A DNA stretch of 4,295 nucleotides from a virus (lineage: Duplodnaviria > Heunggongvirae > Uroviricota > Caudoviricetes), in IMG/VR virus record IMGVR_UViG_2706794688_000008; one strand, 5' to 3'. The notes under the pieces were generated by a model that did no database searches, was not told where the DNA came from, and worked only from the letters and a program-made list of their open reading frames with translations. This document shows, one piece after another, positions 26 through 4,295 of this stretch. How positions within the stretch are numbered: the first letter of the stretch is position 1; every line of letters starts with the position of its first letter. The position numbers and the translations under genes were made by a program.

Positions 26-214
26 TTAAAAAAAGAACAAATGGTAGTGTCCGCTATTGCCAGTACACCTCAGGGTATAAGGGGTTATGGCCACCGGACT
101 ACCAAACGGCTGCCAGCCCTCTTTCAGTTTATGTGTCAGCTTTTCCGCAAGATCTGACGGCGGCGCCGCCCTGACAACATCATAGTGTTTAAATGCCATG
201 GTTCTTTCCACCAT
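26..214 (-). CDS. small phage protein, DUF1737-like (62 aa from ATG 214, or 57 aa from ATG 199)
   Basis: Complete minus-strand ORF with TAA stop at 26-28. The motif HYDVV...LKEGWQPFGSPV resembles the short DUF1737-type domain found alone or at the N-terminus of NanS-p esterases next to lysis genes in lambdoid phages (recalled, not searched). The second ATG at 199 has GGAAAG 5-6 nt upstream; the first ATG at 214 has no Shine-Dalgarno. Confidence 0.5.
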   Translation of the reverse strand: MVERTMAFKHYDVVRAAPPSDLAEKLTHKLKEGWQPFGSPVAITPYTLRCTGNSGHYHLFFF

Positions 215-392
215 CTGAAAAATAATTCTTTAAAATACCTGACATGTAATACAGAAAAAACACAAAACCATACCTTAAATAAAAACCTGATTATCAAGCA
301 GATATGCATGGATAAACTACAAGACGAGATATAAACCACCCTGCATTTAAATAAACAATAAACAACATCAGAAAAATAATTCTGCTCTATGG

Positions 393-421
393 TTTACATT
401 CAAAAATATCATTTATACTTT
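393..421 (+). promoter_or_regulatory. candidate sigma70 promoter for the plus-strand ORF at 460
   Basis: -35-like TTTACA at 393-398, then either TATACT at 414-419 (15-nt spacer) or TACTTT at 416-421 (17-nt spacer), in AT-rich DNA about 40 nt upstream of the ORF's RBS. Hexamer matching only. Confidence 0.3.
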
Positions 422-459
422 TCAGAACATCACCAGCAAGGCATAAACAAGGAAACTAA

Positions 460-795
460 ATGAAGTGGATTGTGATTGATACAGTTATCCAGCCATCATG
501 CGGAATATCTTTTTCAGTCATATGGAGTAAAATAAAATTAATAATCTGGTATCAATCGGATGCTTTCTTACCTCCTGAAAGTATATTTACACTGACTCAC
601 ACAGGCATCATGCTCAATAACAAAGTGCTACCTGTAACCATTTACAACGTAGTACCATTCAATAAAACATTCTGGAATTCAATCAAAAATAGCCAGGAAT
701 GCCCTACAAATACAGATAACGTATTGAATGAATGCTTTAATAACCGTTGCACTCTGCAAATATGTCCTTATGGACTAAAACAACAAAGTCCATAA
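460..795 (+). CDS. hypothetical protein (111 aa), AT-rich cargo ORF antisense to the phage late operon
   Basis: ATG at 460 is preceded by AAGGAA at 449-454 (5-nt spacer); TAA stop at 793-795. A 336-nt open frame in visibly AT-rich DNA. The C-terminus has four Cys (C-x10-C-x4-C-x4-C). 6 of 13 Ile codons are AUA. I recognise no homolog. Confidence 0.4.
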
Positions 796-816
796 GGAGT
801 TTACTCACATCTGACA

Positions 817-851
817 AAATCAATATAAACAGCCCCTCCGGAGAGGGGCTG
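817..851 (-). terminator. intrinsic terminator (hairpin plus U-rich tract) for minus-strand transcription
   Basis: Perfect 9-bp stem 830-838 / 843-851 (CAGCCCCTC / GAGGGGCTG) with 4-nt loop. On the minus strand it is followed by TTTATATTGATTTTG; on the plus strand there is no U tract after it. Confidence 0.6.
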
Positions 852-926
852 GAGAGTGGCGCTATGTGCCATTGCATGGTGCCGGGTGCCTCCCGGTGAA
901 TTCAGTACCAGCACCTGAATCCGCGA

Positions 927-1053
927 TTATCCCATATACCTACTCGCTGATTGCCCCTCCGCACAGGGGGATTCACCATGCCAGTTTCTTTTAACAAACT
1001 CCCCGCAAACCAGACAACAGTCAACCGCCTGAATTGTGAAGTATTTAAAAATT
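927..1053 (-). CDS. 3' end of an unresolved minus-strand ORF (start hidden in mask or at 1394/1397)
   Basis: Open frame from the mask edge to a TAA stop at 927-929 (tail ...CCLVCGEFVKRNWHGESPCAEGQSASRYMG), about 75 nt upstream of the minus-strand terminator at 830-851. Competes with the plus-strand ORF starting at 978. Confidence 0.25.
978..1053 (+). CDS. 5' end of an unresolved plus-strand ORF (MPVSFNKLPANQTTVNRLNCEVFKN...), continues into mask
   Basis: ATG at 978 is preceded by AGGGGGA at 965-971 (6-nt spacer), a strong Shine-Dalgarno. The frame is open to the mask edge. Mutually exclusive with the minus-strand model over the same bases. Confidence 0.3.
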
Positions 1054-1327
1054 NNNNNNNNNNNNNNNNNNNNNNNNNNNNNNNNNNNNNNNNNNNNNNN
1101 NNNNNNNNNNNNNNNNNNNNNNNNNNNNNNNNNNNNNNNNNNNNNNNNNNNNNNNNNNNNNNNNNNNNNNNNNNNNNNNNNNNNNNNNNNNNNNNNNNNN
1201 NNNNNNNNNNNNNNNNNNNNNNNNNNNNNNNNNNNNNNNNNNNNNNNNNNNNNNNNNNNNNNNNNNNNNNNNNNNNNNNNNNNNNNNNNNNNNNNNNNNN
1301 NNNNNNNNNNNNNNNNNNNNNNNNNNN

Positions 1328-1593
1328 TCCTGAACAAGAGCAAATAATTCTGAATTAGCAACCATGAACTCATCGCAAACCCTCTGTATAGCATCACTAT
1401 TCAGAATAATAACGTCTCTTCCCGAAAGACGATCAGGAGTACAGAACAAAACTGTCAAACGGCTGAAGGCCTTTGCTCGTGCTGCATTGACTATATCAAT
1501 ACGCTGCCTAAGGATGAAACACCCCGACGCCTCATCAATATTCACTCTACCCACACCATATGAATGATAAATATTTAATGCTGAAAAAACCAT
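1328..1593 (-). CDS. 5' part of a hypothetical minus-strand ORF running into mask 1
   Basis: Frame open across the whole visible block from ATG 1593 (in-frame stop at 1624-1626 upstream). No convincing Shine-Dalgarno. 5 of 8 visible Arg codons are AGA/AGG/CGA and 2 of 8 Ile codons are AUA. No recognisable family. Confidence 0.3.
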
Positions 1594-1960
1594 TAGACCG
1601 TATAACAAACACTCAATCAATACTTAACAGAACTTTTATTTTTGACAAACATAAAATATTTTCAACAATATCCTGAGCCAGGNNNNNNNNNNNNNNNNNN
1701 NNNNNNNNNNNNNNNNNNNNNNNNNNNNNNNNNNNNNNNNNNNNNNNNNNNNNNNNNNNNNNNNNNNNNNNNNNNNNNNNNNNNNNNNNNNNNNNNNNNN
1801 NNNNNNNNNNNNNNNNNNNNNNNNNNNNNNNNNNNNNNNNNNNNNNNNNNNNNNNNNNNNNNNNNNNNNNNNNNNNNNNNNNNNNNNNNNNNNNNNNNNN
1901 NNNNNNNNNNNNNNNNNNNNNNNNNNNNNNNNNNNNNNNNNNNNNNNNNNNNNNNNNNNN

Positions 1961-2037
1961 NNNNNNNNNNNNNNNNNNNNNNNATTGCTTAGAAGGCAAT
2001 TGCTCTGTCCGGCTGAGCTAACAACGCATGATGCAGA
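1961..2037 (-). tRNA. argO: tRNA-Arg (anticodon UCU), 5' half visible, 3' half in mask
   Basis: Minus-strand read from 2037: acceptor GCGTTGT, U8 A9, D stem GCTC/GAGC, anticodon stem ATTGC/GCAAT with loop CTTCTAA (anticodon TCT). The sequence enters the N block at 1983, so the 3' end near 1961 is extrapolated. Symbol assigned only by position in the ileZ-argN-argO cluster recalled from Stx-type phages. Confidence 0.7.
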
Positions 2038-2040
2038 TAA

Positions 2041-2117
2041 TGGACCGCCATCGGGGACTTGAACCCCGCGCAGCCAGCTTCGAAGGCTGGCGCTCTTTCC
2101 TGATGAGCTAATGGCGG
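2041..2117 (-). tRNA. argN: tRNA-Arg (anticodon UCG)
   Basis: Full cloverleaf folded by hand: acceptor CCGCCAT/ATGGCGG, D stem GCTC/GAGC, anticodon stem CCAGC/GCTGG with loop CTTCGAA (anticodon TCG), T stem CGGGG/CCCCG with loop TTCAAGT, encoded CCA. Symbol assigned by cluster position only. Confidence 0.8.
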
Positions 2118-2124
2118 TATGTGA

Positions 2125-2200
2125 TGGTGGCCCTTGCTGGATTTGAACCAGCGACCTGGCGATTATGAGTCGCTCGCTCTCACCACTGAGCTAAAGGGCC
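2125..2200 (-). tRNA. ileZ: tRNA-Ile2 (anticodon CAU, lysidine type; formally could be Met)
   Basis: Full cloverleaf: acceptor GGCCCTT/AAGGGCC, D stem GCTC/GAGC, anticodon loop CTCATAA (anticodon CAT), T stem GCTGG/CCAGC with loop TTCAAAT, discriminator A and encoded CCA. Closely resembles E. coli ileX-type tRNA as I recall it. Confidence 0.85.
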
Positions 2201-2240
2201 GGGAGCCGCATAATAACGACGCGTAATTAATTCTTCAATA

Positions 2241-3348
2241 TCATCCGTTCTGGCTGACTAAATCCTGTACTTCCCGAACCGTCTGCTCAAAACGTTCAGT
2301 CTCCAGCTCAACGCCAATTGCACGACGCCCGAGCGCCAGTGCCGCTTTCACTGTCGAACCCAACCCCATGAAAAAATCTGCAATCAGGTCACCCGGACGA
2401 CTGCTAGCGCTGATTATCTGCTGCAGCATTTCTGCCGGTTTTTCGCACGGATGTTTCCCGGGATAGAACTGCACCGGTTTATGCGTCCACACATCGGTAT
2501 ACGGCACCTGCACCGTCACGCCAAAATACCGCCGCAGATGTTTATATTCACTCAGCAGCTCCGCATACTGCCGGTTCAGTGAGGTATACGTATCCACCAG
2601 CTGGTGGTGGAGCTTTTCCAGTTCACCACGCCGATGCTTCTCTTCTGCCACCCGGGCAAACAGCGCCTGTAATTTCAGATAATCGCTTTCATTCGGCAAC
2701 TGCCACTGACCGGCACTGAACCAGTGCGACACCATGTTTTTCTTTCCTGTGGCATCTGCAATCTGTTTTGCCGTTATCCCCAGGGCAGCTCGCGCATCAC
2801 GAAAGTAAGAAATCAGCGGGGCCATCACATGCTGTTTCAGTGCACTGCCCTTCGCCGCATACCCGGCATCTTTCGGACGATACGGCCCCTGATAATGTTC
2901 CGCGAACAGAATGCGCTCTGTGGCGGGGAAATACGCCCGCAGGCTTTCCTTGTTGCATCCGTTCCAGCGTCCGGACGGCTTCGCCCAGATAATATGGTTC
3001 AGCACACTGAAGCGTTCACGCATCATGATTTCGATATCAGATGCCAGGCGATGACCACAGAACAGGTAAAGACTTCCGGCAGGTTTCAGCNNNNNNNNNN
3101 NNNNNNNNNNNNNNNNNNNNNNNNNNNNNNNNNNNNNNNNNNNNNNNNNNNNNNNNNNNNNNNNNNNNNNNNNNNNNNNNNNNNNNNNNNNNNNNNNNNN
3201 NNNNNNNNNNNNNNNNNNNNNNNNNNNNNNNNNNNNNNNNNNNNNNNNNNNNNNNNNNNNNNNNNNNNNNNNNNNNNNNNNNNNNNNNNNNNNNNNNNNN
3301 NNNNNNNNNNNNNNNNNNNNNNNNNNNNNNNNNNNNNNNNNNNNNNNN
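2241..3348 (-). CDS. DNA methyltransferase, beta-class N6-adenine/N4-cytosine type (PF01555-like); N-terminus and start hidden in mask
   Basis: TGA stop at 2241-2243. Visible 283 aa begins LKPAGSLYLFCGH (the segment that follows the DPPY motif) and ends with an FxGxG-type SAM-binding motif (DFFMGLGSTVKAA); this C-terminal motif order is typical of beta-class enzymes. The DPPY motif itself must lie in the masked block. The six-frame start at TTG 3479 is rejected. Confidence 0.8.
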
Positions 3349-3396
3349 AAAGCAGTGGGCCTGAGGTTTGCTTGTGAACCCAACGCATGAGCAGAT

Positions 3397-3427
3397 GGCT
3401 GGTGGGTGCCCCTAACACCCACCAGCC
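3397..3427. repeat. perfect 12-bp GC-rich inverted repeat with 7-nt spacer (stem-loop or operator candidate)
   Basis: GGCTGGTGGGTG at 3397-3408 and its exact reverse complement CACCCACCAGCC at 3416-3427, with loop CCCCTAA. No U tract on either strand, so it is not a terminator. It lies between the 65-aa ORF terminator and the methyltransferase. Confidence 0.6.
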
Positions 3428-3440
3428 GCCCATTTACCAC

Positions 3441-3468
3441 AAATAAAAAAGCCTTCACTGCGGAAGGC
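3441..3468 (-). terminator. intrinsic terminator after the 65-aa ORF
   Basis: 6-bp stem GCCTTC/GAAGGC (3451-3456 / 3463-3468) with 6-nt loop, followed on the minus strand by TTTTTTATTT (3450-3441). It overlaps the ORF's TGA stop at 3455-3457. Confidence 0.55.
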
Positions 3469-3652
3469 GTCTGTAACAACCGAACTGATAGTCTGCCAGA
3501 CCCGCCATAACCAGCTGGGTCAGTATTAACTGGCAGCGTTCGCGTGAAAGGTAAGTATTCTGCGCTATCTCCCCGACTGTCGCCGGTTCGGTAACGCTTA
3601 ATTCATTAAACACCACTCTGGCGGTTTCTGTCATATCCTGCTGTTTTAGCAT
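3455..3652 (-). CDS. hypothetical small protein (65 aa), putative winged-helix DNA-binding fold
   Basis: ATG at 3652 is preceded by AAGGAAAAG; TGA stop at 3455-3457; own terminator. The segment TVGEIAQNTYLSRERCQLILTQLVMAGLADY resembles the helix-turn-helix plus wing of ArsR/MarR-like regulators (pattern judgement only). Confidence 0.5.
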   Translation of the reverse strand: MLKQQDMTETARVVFNELSVTEPATVGEIAQNTYLSRERCQLILTQLVMAGLADYQFGCYRRLPQ

Positions 3653-3770
3653 GTCTTTTCCTTTTCCGGTTAACGTGACACACCAATAACTCTTGTCGAA
3701 AAAGCCAGCAAGCTGAAAGACAGGTATTCACCGCCACCAGCGCGTTTACTGTACTGACGCGATTTCAGTC

Positions 3771-3796
3771 ATAAAAAACCCGCTCGGCGGCGGGTT
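3771..3796 (-). terminator. tR'-like intrinsic terminator downstream of PR'
   Basis: 7-bp stem AACCCGC/GCGGGTT (3777-3783 / 3790-3796) with 6-nt loop, followed on the minus strand by TTTTTTAT (3778-3771). Confidence 0.7.
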
Positions 3797-3876: not shown

Positions 3877-4295
3877 TTACCTAGTTACCTTTTTTAACTG
3901 CCGCTCAGCCCATGCTTCTTCAATATCAAACCGGGTCACCAGCGCATCATAAAATTTCTTAACTGTTTTTTCCCATGACGCGCGTGTTATCTGGTTTGTC
4001 ACCTCGCATATAGCATTAAATGCCTCCGTTGATGGTAGTCTTTCATAGCCACGACCACCACAACGCTGGCAGTCTCTGATAACAGGCATACCACGTTTTA
4101 CCGACTCTTCACGATGAATGGCGACACCACGCCCACGGCAATCCTTACAGGCGGTGGAAACCTCACCCTTTCCGCCACACTCCGGACAGGCAACTTTTAC
4201 CACCTCCCTGACTTTTTTCCATTCTTCCCAGTAAGACGGATACACACCTTTCGTACACTTTGCCCATACCGGCGGCTTACCATCCGGATACTGGA
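3877..4295 (-). CDS. Q: antitermination protein Q, lambda-type (5' end beyond window)
   Basis: TAA stop at 3877-3879. The frame is open upstream of the six-frame GTG start at 4245 to the window edge. The C-terminus (CQRCGGRGYERLP...WEKTVKKFYDALV...KKVTR) aligns by eye with the lambda Q C-terminus (CGRCKGVGYSRMP...WSRTVKPLYDALV...NAVTR), and it has CxxC zinc-finger motifs. PR' follows immediately. Confidence 0.85.
   Translation of the reverse strand, partial: QYPDGKPPVWAKCTKGVYPSYWEEWKKVREVVKVACPECGGKGEVSTACKDCRGRGVAIHREESVKRGMPVIRDCQRCGGRGYERLPSTEAFNAICEVTNQITRASWEKTVKKFYDALVTRFDIEEAWAERQLKKVTR

Follow-up and report, generated by a model that had tools for sequence, protein, structure and literature searches.

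The question raised by this locus is what occupies the slot in a lambdoid prophage that corresponds to the stxAB region of Stx phages. The sequence analysed here, referred to as the window, is the whole 4,295-nt stretch of the viral record IMGVR_UViG_2706794688_000008, and the original prediction, made from its letters, had regarded the slot (215-1990) as uncharacterised AT-rich cargo and as a candidate for a novel toxin, defence or exclusion function expressed by the lysogen. In fact, the cargo is already known, consisting of the RssB anti-adaptor gene iraL, a known prophage sRNA and two small conserved phage ORFs, and the slot is therefore an ordinary one and does not hold a new toxin or defence gene. 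With a probability of roughly 0.9, a decayed lambdoid prophage has its variable moron (accessory) region at 215-1990, which extends from the tRNA cluster to nanS-p and is made up of already catalogued parts.

Organization of the locus

The order found on the minus strand is Q, tR', methyltransferase, tRNA-Ile2/Arg/Arg, variable slot, nanS-p 5' remnant and IS element, which, as far as the cargo, is the one originally proposed. The C-terminus of a Q-type antiterminator (3877-4245) is followed by a tR'-like hairpin with its T-run (approximately 3770-3796), a 65-aa ORF (3455-3652) and an N6/N4 methyltransferase gene (from 2241), all on the minus strand, as are tRNA-Ile2(CAT) at 2125-2200 and tRNA-Arg(TCG) at 2041-2117, both called by ARAGORN and the Rfam tRNA model and annotated by RefSeq in the relatives as tRNA-Ile and tRNA-Arg, respectively. 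These two tRNA genes (2041-2200) form the upstream border of the slot. A third phage tRNA, tRNA-Arg(TCT), is visible on the same strand through its 5' 44 nt (1984-2027), the reverse complement of which reads GCGTTGTTAGCTCAGCCGGACAGAGCAATTGCCTTCTAAGCAAT, with TCT in the anticodon loop; it was recognized by alignment to the annotated tRNA-Arg of a relative (L001, 4638-4714). Among complete E. coli genomes, the best full-length match to 1984-3090 reaches 97.1%.

At its other end the slot is bounded by a remnant of nanS-p, the sialate esterase gene. This remnant is a 62-codon ORF (26-214, minus strand), with DUF1737 at residues 8-50 (Pfam, E=1.5e-15), which runs into the end of an IS3-family insertion sequence (1-69) truncating the gene; the intact relatives (loci L018, L020, L021 and L025) measure 617-618 aa, with the architecture DUF1737-SASA-DUF6645. 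The similarity to the E. coli relatives ends left of position 70, positions 1-72 are present twice in one S. sonnei locus (L016), and the genes adjoining the IS end in loci L003-L006 carry the Pfam domains HTH_Tnp_1 and rve. Moreover, S. sonnei genomes encode exactly the same 62-aa remnant protein, also adjoining the IS, the cut in nanS-p being the same as in the window. The lysis-proximal genes that had been expected beyond the cargo are thus reduced to this DUF1737 remnant fused to the IS3-family end. The prophage is decayed, with an IS within nanS-p and the lysis genes absent from the window.

As regards base composition, the description of the cargo as AT-rich held for 215-820 (32% GC) and 1328-1682 (38% GC), the value outside the slot being 51%, but not for 821-1010, with 55% GC. 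A promoter consensus scan returned six promoter-like sites versus 5.4 in shuffled sequence, so no conclusions were drawn from consensus promoter sites, and the terminators relied on were those of STnc100 and tR' only.

Identification of iraL

Judged by its sequence, the main gene of the AT-rich part is iraL (c1429, formerly ycgW), which Hryckowian et al. (mBio 2014; PMC4045071) characterised in S. sonnei and in the uropathogenic E. coli strain CFT073. The coding sequence (460-795, plus strand) specifies 111 aa belonging to the IraM/IraL/RssC, PmrD-fold family of RssB anti-adaptors, 110 of which are identical to those of CFT073 IraL (WP_000871291.1), the difference being S74 here and L74 in CFT073. 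The protein is 100% identical to that of S. sonnei Ss046 and 53G, S74 being common to the S. sonnei sequences retrieved. At the DNA level, identity to CFT073 over positions 70-1053 amounts to 99.4%, in line with the definition of iraL, which asks for at least 95% identity to CFT073 iraL along the entire coding sequence and a clear separation from matches to iraM. The ORFs of the slot had been held to lack any assignable family. Nevertheless, the main one matches the NCBIfam IraM model NF007393 along residues 1-110 (162 bits, cutoff 121) and the IraM structure in PDB 8TWD along residues 1-78 (E=6e-31), and RefSeq names its product in the relatives 'anti-adapter protein IraM'. PmrD was not returned for the protein in the Pfam-A scan; PF11183 is listed in the collection's precomputed annotation.

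The original proposal of an antisense ORF with its own expression signals was borne out by this gene, which has a mapped transcription start. The promoter and 5' UTR occupy 215-459 (plus strand, 28.6% GC), with the TSS at 427: the published 5'-RACE sequence corresponds to window positions 427-458 at 31 of 32 bases, 0 matches being expected by chance. Two hexamers were read by eye, a -10 element, TATACT, at 414-419 and a candidate -35 element, TTTACA, at 393-398.

STnc100 and the position of stxAB

The GC-rich block at 821-1010 is assigned, on the basis of its covariance-model match, to the known STnc100 sRNA family. The gene, encoding a PasD-related prophage sRNA of about 190 nt on the minus strand, matches Rfam RF02076 with 132.4 bits, against a gathering threshold of 47, over model positions 1-206 of 206, untruncated. 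A terminator scan placed its intrinsic terminator on the same strand (hairpin 830-851, T-run 829-821). iraL converges on this sRNA gene, which is read on the late strand from 1010 to 821 and ends at this terminator. In the literature, STnc100 has been located 75 nt downstream of stx2, detected in STEC vesicles and described as akin to the Hfq-bound PasD. Within the same block, a plus-strand ORF (866-994), a RefSeq pseudo 'hypothetical protein' which measures 70 aa in some phages, had no family match and is antisense to STnc100, and was therefore regarded as probably spurious.

The STnc100 family keeps its relative position in CFT073, and in the Stx2 phage NC_049917 it stands directly downstream of stx2B. 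The copy of the Stx2 phage scores 186 bits, compared with 132 for that of the window, the DNA identity between both being about 76%. In this phage, stx2AB occupies the same late-operon interval, between tRNA-Ile2/Arg/Arg and STnc100/nanS-p, in agreement with the moron region that had been postulated, which is here the variable interval from the tRNA cluster to the nanS-p/lysis genes. Furthermore, STnc100 is likewise upstream of nanS-p in the Stx2 phage and in CFT073, and in the window iraL is inserted between the two. Since stxAB lies between the tRNAs and STnc100 in the Stx2 phage, the positional equivalent of stx is the orf92/DUF3927 segment and not iraL, which is found in the slot neighbouring the stx position, between STnc100 and nanS-p, on the opposite strand and with its own promoter. 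The location of the cargo at the stxAB site was consequently correct as to the interval, but not as to iraL itself, which is downstream of that site. The stxAB moron and the window share the interval without sequence similarity, orf92 and the predicted DUF3927 ORF being both on the late strand. As originally noted, nothing resembling Stx A or B was detected in the window, nor was it in unmasked relatives: when Stx2A and Stx2B served as tblastn queries, no hit in the window, in S. sonnei L008 or in the prophage of CFT073 surpassed E=0.46.

Small phage ORFs and masked sequence

The segment equivalent to the stx position contains orf108 on the minus strand, whose visible part spans 1328-1593, with an ATG at 1593 and a conserved core of 92 aa from a GTG at 1545, its 3' end entering the first masked stretch. 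It corresponds to phrog_2873 (PHROG 2873, function not annotated; E=2.8e-70), with 23 homologues only, all of them from Escherichia/Shigella where the source names the organism. There is no function name among these 23 homologues, no Pfam or NCBIfam family was found, and the one phage record is annotated 'hypothetical'. The alleles form two groups, about 57% identical to each other, and orf92 is under purifying selection, with a dN/dS of 0.27. The PHROG 2873 ORF was left uncalled by PGAP. Its AF2 model is a helical hairpin (pLDDT 73). The profile-HMM and structure searches of the slot ORFs, which placed iraL in the IraM family, gave no specific fold match in this case, those obtained against PDB and BFVD being generic coiled coils, none with E<=0.001.

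The slot contains 575 N (274 + 301), the approximate amount originally reported as masked. In the relatives, mask 1 (1054-1327, minus strand) corresponds to 250 nt, made up of the final 61 nt of orf92/108 as well as a DUF3927 ORF of 43 aa, and mask 2 (1683-1983, minus strand) corresponds in all of them to 81 nt, that is, the 3' 33 nt of tRNA-Arg(TCT) and a 48-nt spacer. Going by these relatives, a 43-aa DUF3927 small membrane ORF would lie under mask 1. In relatives whose flanking sequence is 100% identical, this ORF, placed between orf92 and STnc100, matches Pfam PF13064 (E=1.7e-27) and phrog_1470 'TciB-like', and the RefSeq annotation of CFT073 and of AREA_499 likewise names a 'DUF3927 family protein'. 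Its likeness to TciB comes from similarity annotation, the tciA/tciB/tciC set of phage P1 comprising TerB-like and DUF3927 small proteins; in some related prophages (L019) a TerB-like gene stands directly upstream of the DUF3927 ORF, whereas the window has no TerB-like gene. No functional study of TciB/DUF3927 was found in the literature, the name deriving from the phage P1 annotation.

The N-runs of the window measure 274/301/258, against 250/81/253 nt in the S. sonnei loci and all the E. coli relatives. This means an excess of 24 nt for mask 1 and of 220 nt for mask 2, and therefore an element absent from the relatives could sit under the masks. The exact source of the masked sequence was not found among the S. 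sonnei loci and E. coli relatives, and pattern scans of viral, metagenome and genome contigs gave no match to the window's own mask spacing, nor, for mask 2, to any spacing near 301 nt, while the 81-nt spacing, scanned for as a control, was recovered from at least 120 viral contigs. It had been suggested that the main gene might be hidden under the masks. This is unlikely, in view of what the relatives hold there, namely the end of orf92, DUF3927, the 3' part of the tRNA-Arg and the spacer.

In a further reading, orf92/108 and DUF3927 would constitute an uncharacterised, selectively maintained module at the stxAB-equivalent site, for example a small membrane peptide with a helical-hairpin partner affecting envelope function, the timing of lysis or the susceptibility to phages or colicins, or else the extra 24/220 nt would hide an insertion absent from all relatives. 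We consider this rather improbable.

Proposed role of IraL

In the preferred reading, that of a known moron region with iraL as its main gene, the cassette at 215-820 would comprise a sigma-70 promoter (TSS 427) driving the synthesis of the 111-aa PmrD-fold protein. Transcription would run opposite to that of the late operon, which makes it independent of Q. IraL would bind the N-terminal receiver domain of RssB, blocking the delivery of sigma-S (RpoS) to ClpXP by RssB. The level and half-life of sigma-S would then increase in exponential growth, and the general stress response of the lysogen would thereby be tuned upward. Both RssB binding and sigma-S stabilisation were demonstrated by others on near-identical alleles, from which they are extended here by analogy. 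In fact, deletion of iraL in CFT073 and S. sonnei lowered log-phase sigma-S, whose half-life was around 2.5 min in the mutants compared with around 5 min when the gene was present; IraL was copurified with RssB, two-hybrid binding being limited to the RssB N-terminal domain; and iraL was expressed in log phase in LB from a sigma-70 promoter (PMC4045071). The present computations establish, for their part, how closely the sequences agree and to which families they belong, that the TSS sequence and the gene order are conserved, and that purifying selection acts on orf92.

The window shares with the CFT073/S. sonnei IraL system the promoter/TSS sequence and the prophage context. The potB prophage of CFT073 has the same order, i.e. 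Q, tRNAs, DUF3927, STnc100, iraL (antisense), DUF1737 and holin. The window differs in a 1.5-kb block between tR' and the tRNAs, with the 65-aa ORF and the DNA methyltransferase gene, where CFT073 has an IS200; in S. sonnei, both of these genes are missing from the stretch that separates Q from the tRNAs.

The closest comparison outside this system is K-12 IraM, which is e14-associated (PDB 8TWD, in complex with RssB), a homologous PmrD-fold anti-adaptor 61% identical to the window IraL over 107 aa, although its promoter and genomic context differ. Among the 14 IraM residues contacting RssB, 10 are identical in the window IraL and three are conservative; by clusters, 5/5 are identical in I, 3/5 in II (T13S, L75I) and 2/4 in III (H63N, I64V). 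With the identity and most of the interface thus preserved, the RefSeq name IraM and the NCBIfam IraM subfamily model passed, the ORF might be taken for plain IraM, controlled by PhoP, induced by Mg2+ starvation and binding both RssB domains as the K-12 gene does; GGTTTA at 391-396 would also resemble what we take to be a PhoP box half-site, as a candidate. This is, nevertheless, quite unlikely. The DNA similarity to K-12 iraM, of about 70%, covers the coding part only (query 244-565 of 215-830) and does not reach into the promoter, and the context is that of a potB-type lambdoid prophage as opposed to e14. Moreover, identities to 215-830 are bimodal, with 1444 records at >=90%, 3329 at 60-80% and almost none between, which fits a split between iraL and iraM; at least 80% of this segment is carried by 1433 of 5426 complete E. 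coli genomes. Finally, starvation for Mg2+ induces IraM, which binds to the two domains of RssB, whereas the log-phase expression, sigma-70 promoter and two-hybrid binding restricted to the RssB N-terminal domain are those reported for IraL (PMC4045071).

In a decayed prophage the cassette could also be an inert remnant, with iraL silent or non-functional. The IS truncating nanS-p, the lack of lysis genes in the window and the substitution L74S relative to CFT073 IraL would point in this direction, but neither the reading frame of iraL nor its mapped TSS region is disrupted, and its promoter does not depend on the late operon. Furthermore, S. sonnei encodes the identical protein beside a nanS-p equally truncated by an IS, and it is a species in which iraL deletion lowered sigma-S. 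We regard such inertness as very improbable. iraL is presumably expressed and active in the present host.

That the slot conceals a new gene for toxicity, defence or exclusion expressed by the lysogen, perhaps under the masks, is scarcely credible: the N-runs do exceed the DNA of the relatives, and orf92 and DUF3927 have no assigned function, but the 220 extra nt give coding room for no more than some 70 aa, the S. sonnei loci, which match the window at 100% over 1-1053 and 1328-1682 and hence up to either edge of mask 1 and the left edge of mask 2, have 250 and 81 nt only at these places, the window spacing is absent from the viral, metagenome and genome collections, no Stx similarity appeared, PADLOC-DB gave no match (E<=0.01) for IraL, orf108, DUF3927 or the 70-aa plus-strand ORF, and the main visible ORF, with which the slot is filled, is an already characterised moron, iraL.

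Implications

As a regulator of RpoS stability, iraL is already characterised and is often present in uropathogenic E. coli and in Shigella, so that the locus adds little new in this respect. Three points are modestly useful. As regards annotation, the RefSeq label 'IraM' on IraL masks a functionally distinct paralogue. With regard to the organization of lambdoid prophages, iraL is a promoter-bearing moron situated between STnc100 and nanS-p, beside but outside the stx position. Within this same iraL region, PHROG 2873 represents a small ORF which PGAP does not call and on which purifying selection acts.

Identity and spread of the AT-rich gene

The AT-rich gene of the variable slot between the phage tRNA cluster and nanS-p (215-1990) is iraL, a 111-aa coding sequence on the plus strand (460-795). 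The gene is already known, and the slot is thus filled by a characterised moron, not by the novel cargo with unassignable ORFs of the original prediction. In fact, the ORF passes the NCBIfam model NF007393 (162 bits against a cutoff of 121), matches the IraM chain of PDB 8TWD (E=6e-31), is 61% identical to K-12-type IraM and is labelled 'anti-adapter protein IraM' in every close RefSeq E. coli match. PF11183 (PmrD) was present in the precomputed annotation of IraL in the collection, and absent from a Pfam-A scan (E<=0.1). IraL of CFT073 (c1429, formerly ycgW) was reported in 2014 to be a fourth RssB anti-adaptor (PMC4045071). The protein encoded by the CFT073 potB prophage is identical to the window ORF at 110 of 111 aa, the DNA being 99.4% identical over window 70-1053, and S. 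sonnei Ss046, 53G and others encode the exact window protein. The promoter is also conserved, since window 427-458 matches the published iraL 5'-RACE sequence at 31 of 32 bases, with a chance expectation of 0 (PMC4045071). As regards the 14 RssB-contact residues of the IraM crystal structure (PMC10844676), 10 are identical and 3 conservatively changed in the window IraL.

At least 80% of window 215-830 was found in 1433 of 5426 complete E. coli genomes, with identities in two groups (>=90% and 60-80%), which reproduces the published iraL/iraM split (PMC4045071); the E. albertii type strain has a 99% identical copy of iraL. The RefSeq/PGAP annotation calls IraL 'anti-adapter protein IraM' both in an annotated E. 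coli relative (L001, 3391-3726) and in CFT073 (L027, 23466-23801). Since the paralogues are reported to differ in regulation and RssB binding mode, this label merges two distinct proteins. A third variant, intermediate between both groups, was observed in E. coli O157:H7 and in E. coli strain 7784 (H93/H94); it matches window 346-785, including part of the upstream region, at about 74% DNA identity, and is annotated as IraM in O157:H7 genomes. Moreover, E. coli ECGI0523 carries a 32% identical IraL/IraM-like ORF (L154, 4001-4318) at roughly the chromosomal coordinate of iraM in another strain (L153), which may be a highly divergent allele.

Other contents of the slot

GC content is uneven along the window. 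The slot had been described as AT-rich, which holds for 215-820 (32% GC) and 1328-1682 (38%) as compared with 51% outside the slot, but not for 821-1010 (55%). Rfam identifies this last block as a full-length STnc100 sRNA (RF02076, minus strand; 132.4 bits, gathering score 47), with model positions 1-206 covered. The family, already known from prophages, is kin to the PasD sRNAs, which are bound by Hfq, and a location 75 nt downstream of stx2 has been reported for it. The 3' end of the sRNA is formed by a hairpin (830-851) and the T-run behind it, and the convergent iraL and STnc100 meet at this hairpin. Because the U-tract is missing on the iraL strand, we only infer that iraL terminates there. 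A plus-strand ORF antisense to the sRNA (866-994), annotated by RefSeq/PGAP as a partial hypothetical protein, gave no match in family searches and is probably spurious. In a related prophage with intact nanS-p (L021), two tandem STnc100 copies (7773-7963 and 8241-8450) and no protein cargo lie between the tRNAs and nanS-p.

The remaining visible ORF, orf92/108, runs on the late strand from an ATG at 1593, with a conserved 92-aa core from a GTG at 1545, and continues into the first mask (1054-1327). An S. sonnei relative has a 108-aa form of it, which matches phrog_2873 (E=2.8e-70), a PHROG without assigned function. Only 23 homologues were found, all in Escherichia/Shigella wherever the source names an organism, and none bears a function name or Pfam domain. 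They form two allele groups, about 57% identical, and the between-group dN/dS of 0.27, at 72% DNA identity, shows that orf92/108 is a real gene. AlphaFold predicts a helical hairpin (pLDDT 73), for which structure searches gave generic matches only. PGAP leaves the ORF uncalled in CFT073 and AREA_499; unannotated gaps of about 500 nt mark the site of the PHROG 2873 ORF in CFT073 (22554-23054) and in L001 (4138-4638). Directly downstream, all relatives have a 43-aa DUF3927 ('TciB-like') ORF with a hydrophobic stretch, whose place in the window lies wholly beneath the first mask. [quoted passage not shown]

Position of the slot and decay of the prophage

Feature annotation of the minus-strand late operon confirmed the predicted gene order: a Q-type antiterminator, of which the C-terminal part is in view (3877-4245, extending beyond the window edge), a tR'-like hairpin with a T-run (about 3770-3796), a 65-aa ORF (3455-3652), a partly masked N6/N4 DNA methyltransferase (from 2241), tRNA-Ile2(CAT) (2125-2200), tRNA-Arg(TCG) (2041-2117) and a third tRNA, tRNA-Arg(TCT), visible over its 5' 44 nt (1984-2027). 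The 65-aa ORF matches phrog_331, with weak winged-helix similarity (TrmB, MarR), and an identical protein occurs extremely widely, with entries in 32001 blocks of the collection.

The late strand of the Stx2 phage NC_049917 carries, in this order, Q, a methyltransferase remnant, tRNA-Ile2/Arg/Arg, stx2A, stx2B, STnc100 and nanS-p, and the window aligns with it at the tRNAs, STnc100 and the nanS-p start. The orf92/DUF3927 segment, standing where NC_049917 has stx2A and stx2B, is therefore the positional equivalent of stxAB, while iraL occupies the gap from STnc100 to nanS-p, a second slot that measures 606 nt in the window and 221 nt in the Stx phage. This synteny, together with iraL being antisense to the late operon, bears out the position and moron character originally assigned to the slot, in which, as had been noted, no similarity to Stx was found. 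The content of the region varies among other prophages. In CFT073, an STnc490 Rfam match (21568-21691) adjoins an IS200C copy inserted after Q and ahead of the tRNAs, where the window has its methyltransferase block.

On its left, the slot is bounded by a DUF1737 ORF of 62 codons (26-214, minus strand). This is what is left of the N-terminal part of nanS-p, an esterase gene that encodes 617-618 aa where relatives have it intact. The end of an IS3-family element (1-69) breaks nanS-p after about 48 DUF1737 codons, giving a 62-aa fusion ORF. This junction is also present in many S. sonnei genomes and therefore indicates a decayed prophage; the window shows no lysis genes.

The window is a mosaic, S. 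sonnei-like only in its left part. Over 1-1053 and 1328-1682 it matches S. sonnei loci at 100% identity, whereas the S. sonnei prophage remnants are only 87% identical over 1984-2240 and lack the 1.5-kb block 2241-3770, with the 65-aa ORF and the methyltransferase. For 1984-3090, the best full-length match in complete E. coli genomes was 97.1%. The 575 masked bases of the slot are real. All three N-runs exceed the corresponding DNA of every relative, even where S. sonnei loci match the flanks at 100%: 274 N against 250 nt (1054-1327) and 301 N against 81 nt (1683-1983) in S. sonnei loci and E. coli relatives, and 258 N against 253 nt (3091-3348) in E. coli relatives. The 81-nt spacing is present in at least 120 viral contigs, and the spacing of the window's own N-runs had no match in the collections of viral, metagenome and genome contigs. 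The excess reflects either N-runs that do not keep the true length or insertions private to the source.

Proposed role of IraL

The biochemistry and phenotype of IraL were established by others with near-identical alleles. RssB and IraL copurify, and the RssB N-terminal domain was the only part bound by IraL in a two-hybrid assay (PMC4045071). Deletion of iraL lowered log-phase sigma-S in CFT073 and S. sonnei, the sigma-S half-life in CFT073 falling from about 5 to about 2.5 min (PMC4045071). The best-supported account of the AT-rich gene is a Q-independent anti-adaptor moron expressed in lysogens. IraL, presumably active in the window's host, would bind the receiver domain of RssB and block delivery of sigma-S to ClpXP; the sigma-S so spared would raise the general stress response during growth.
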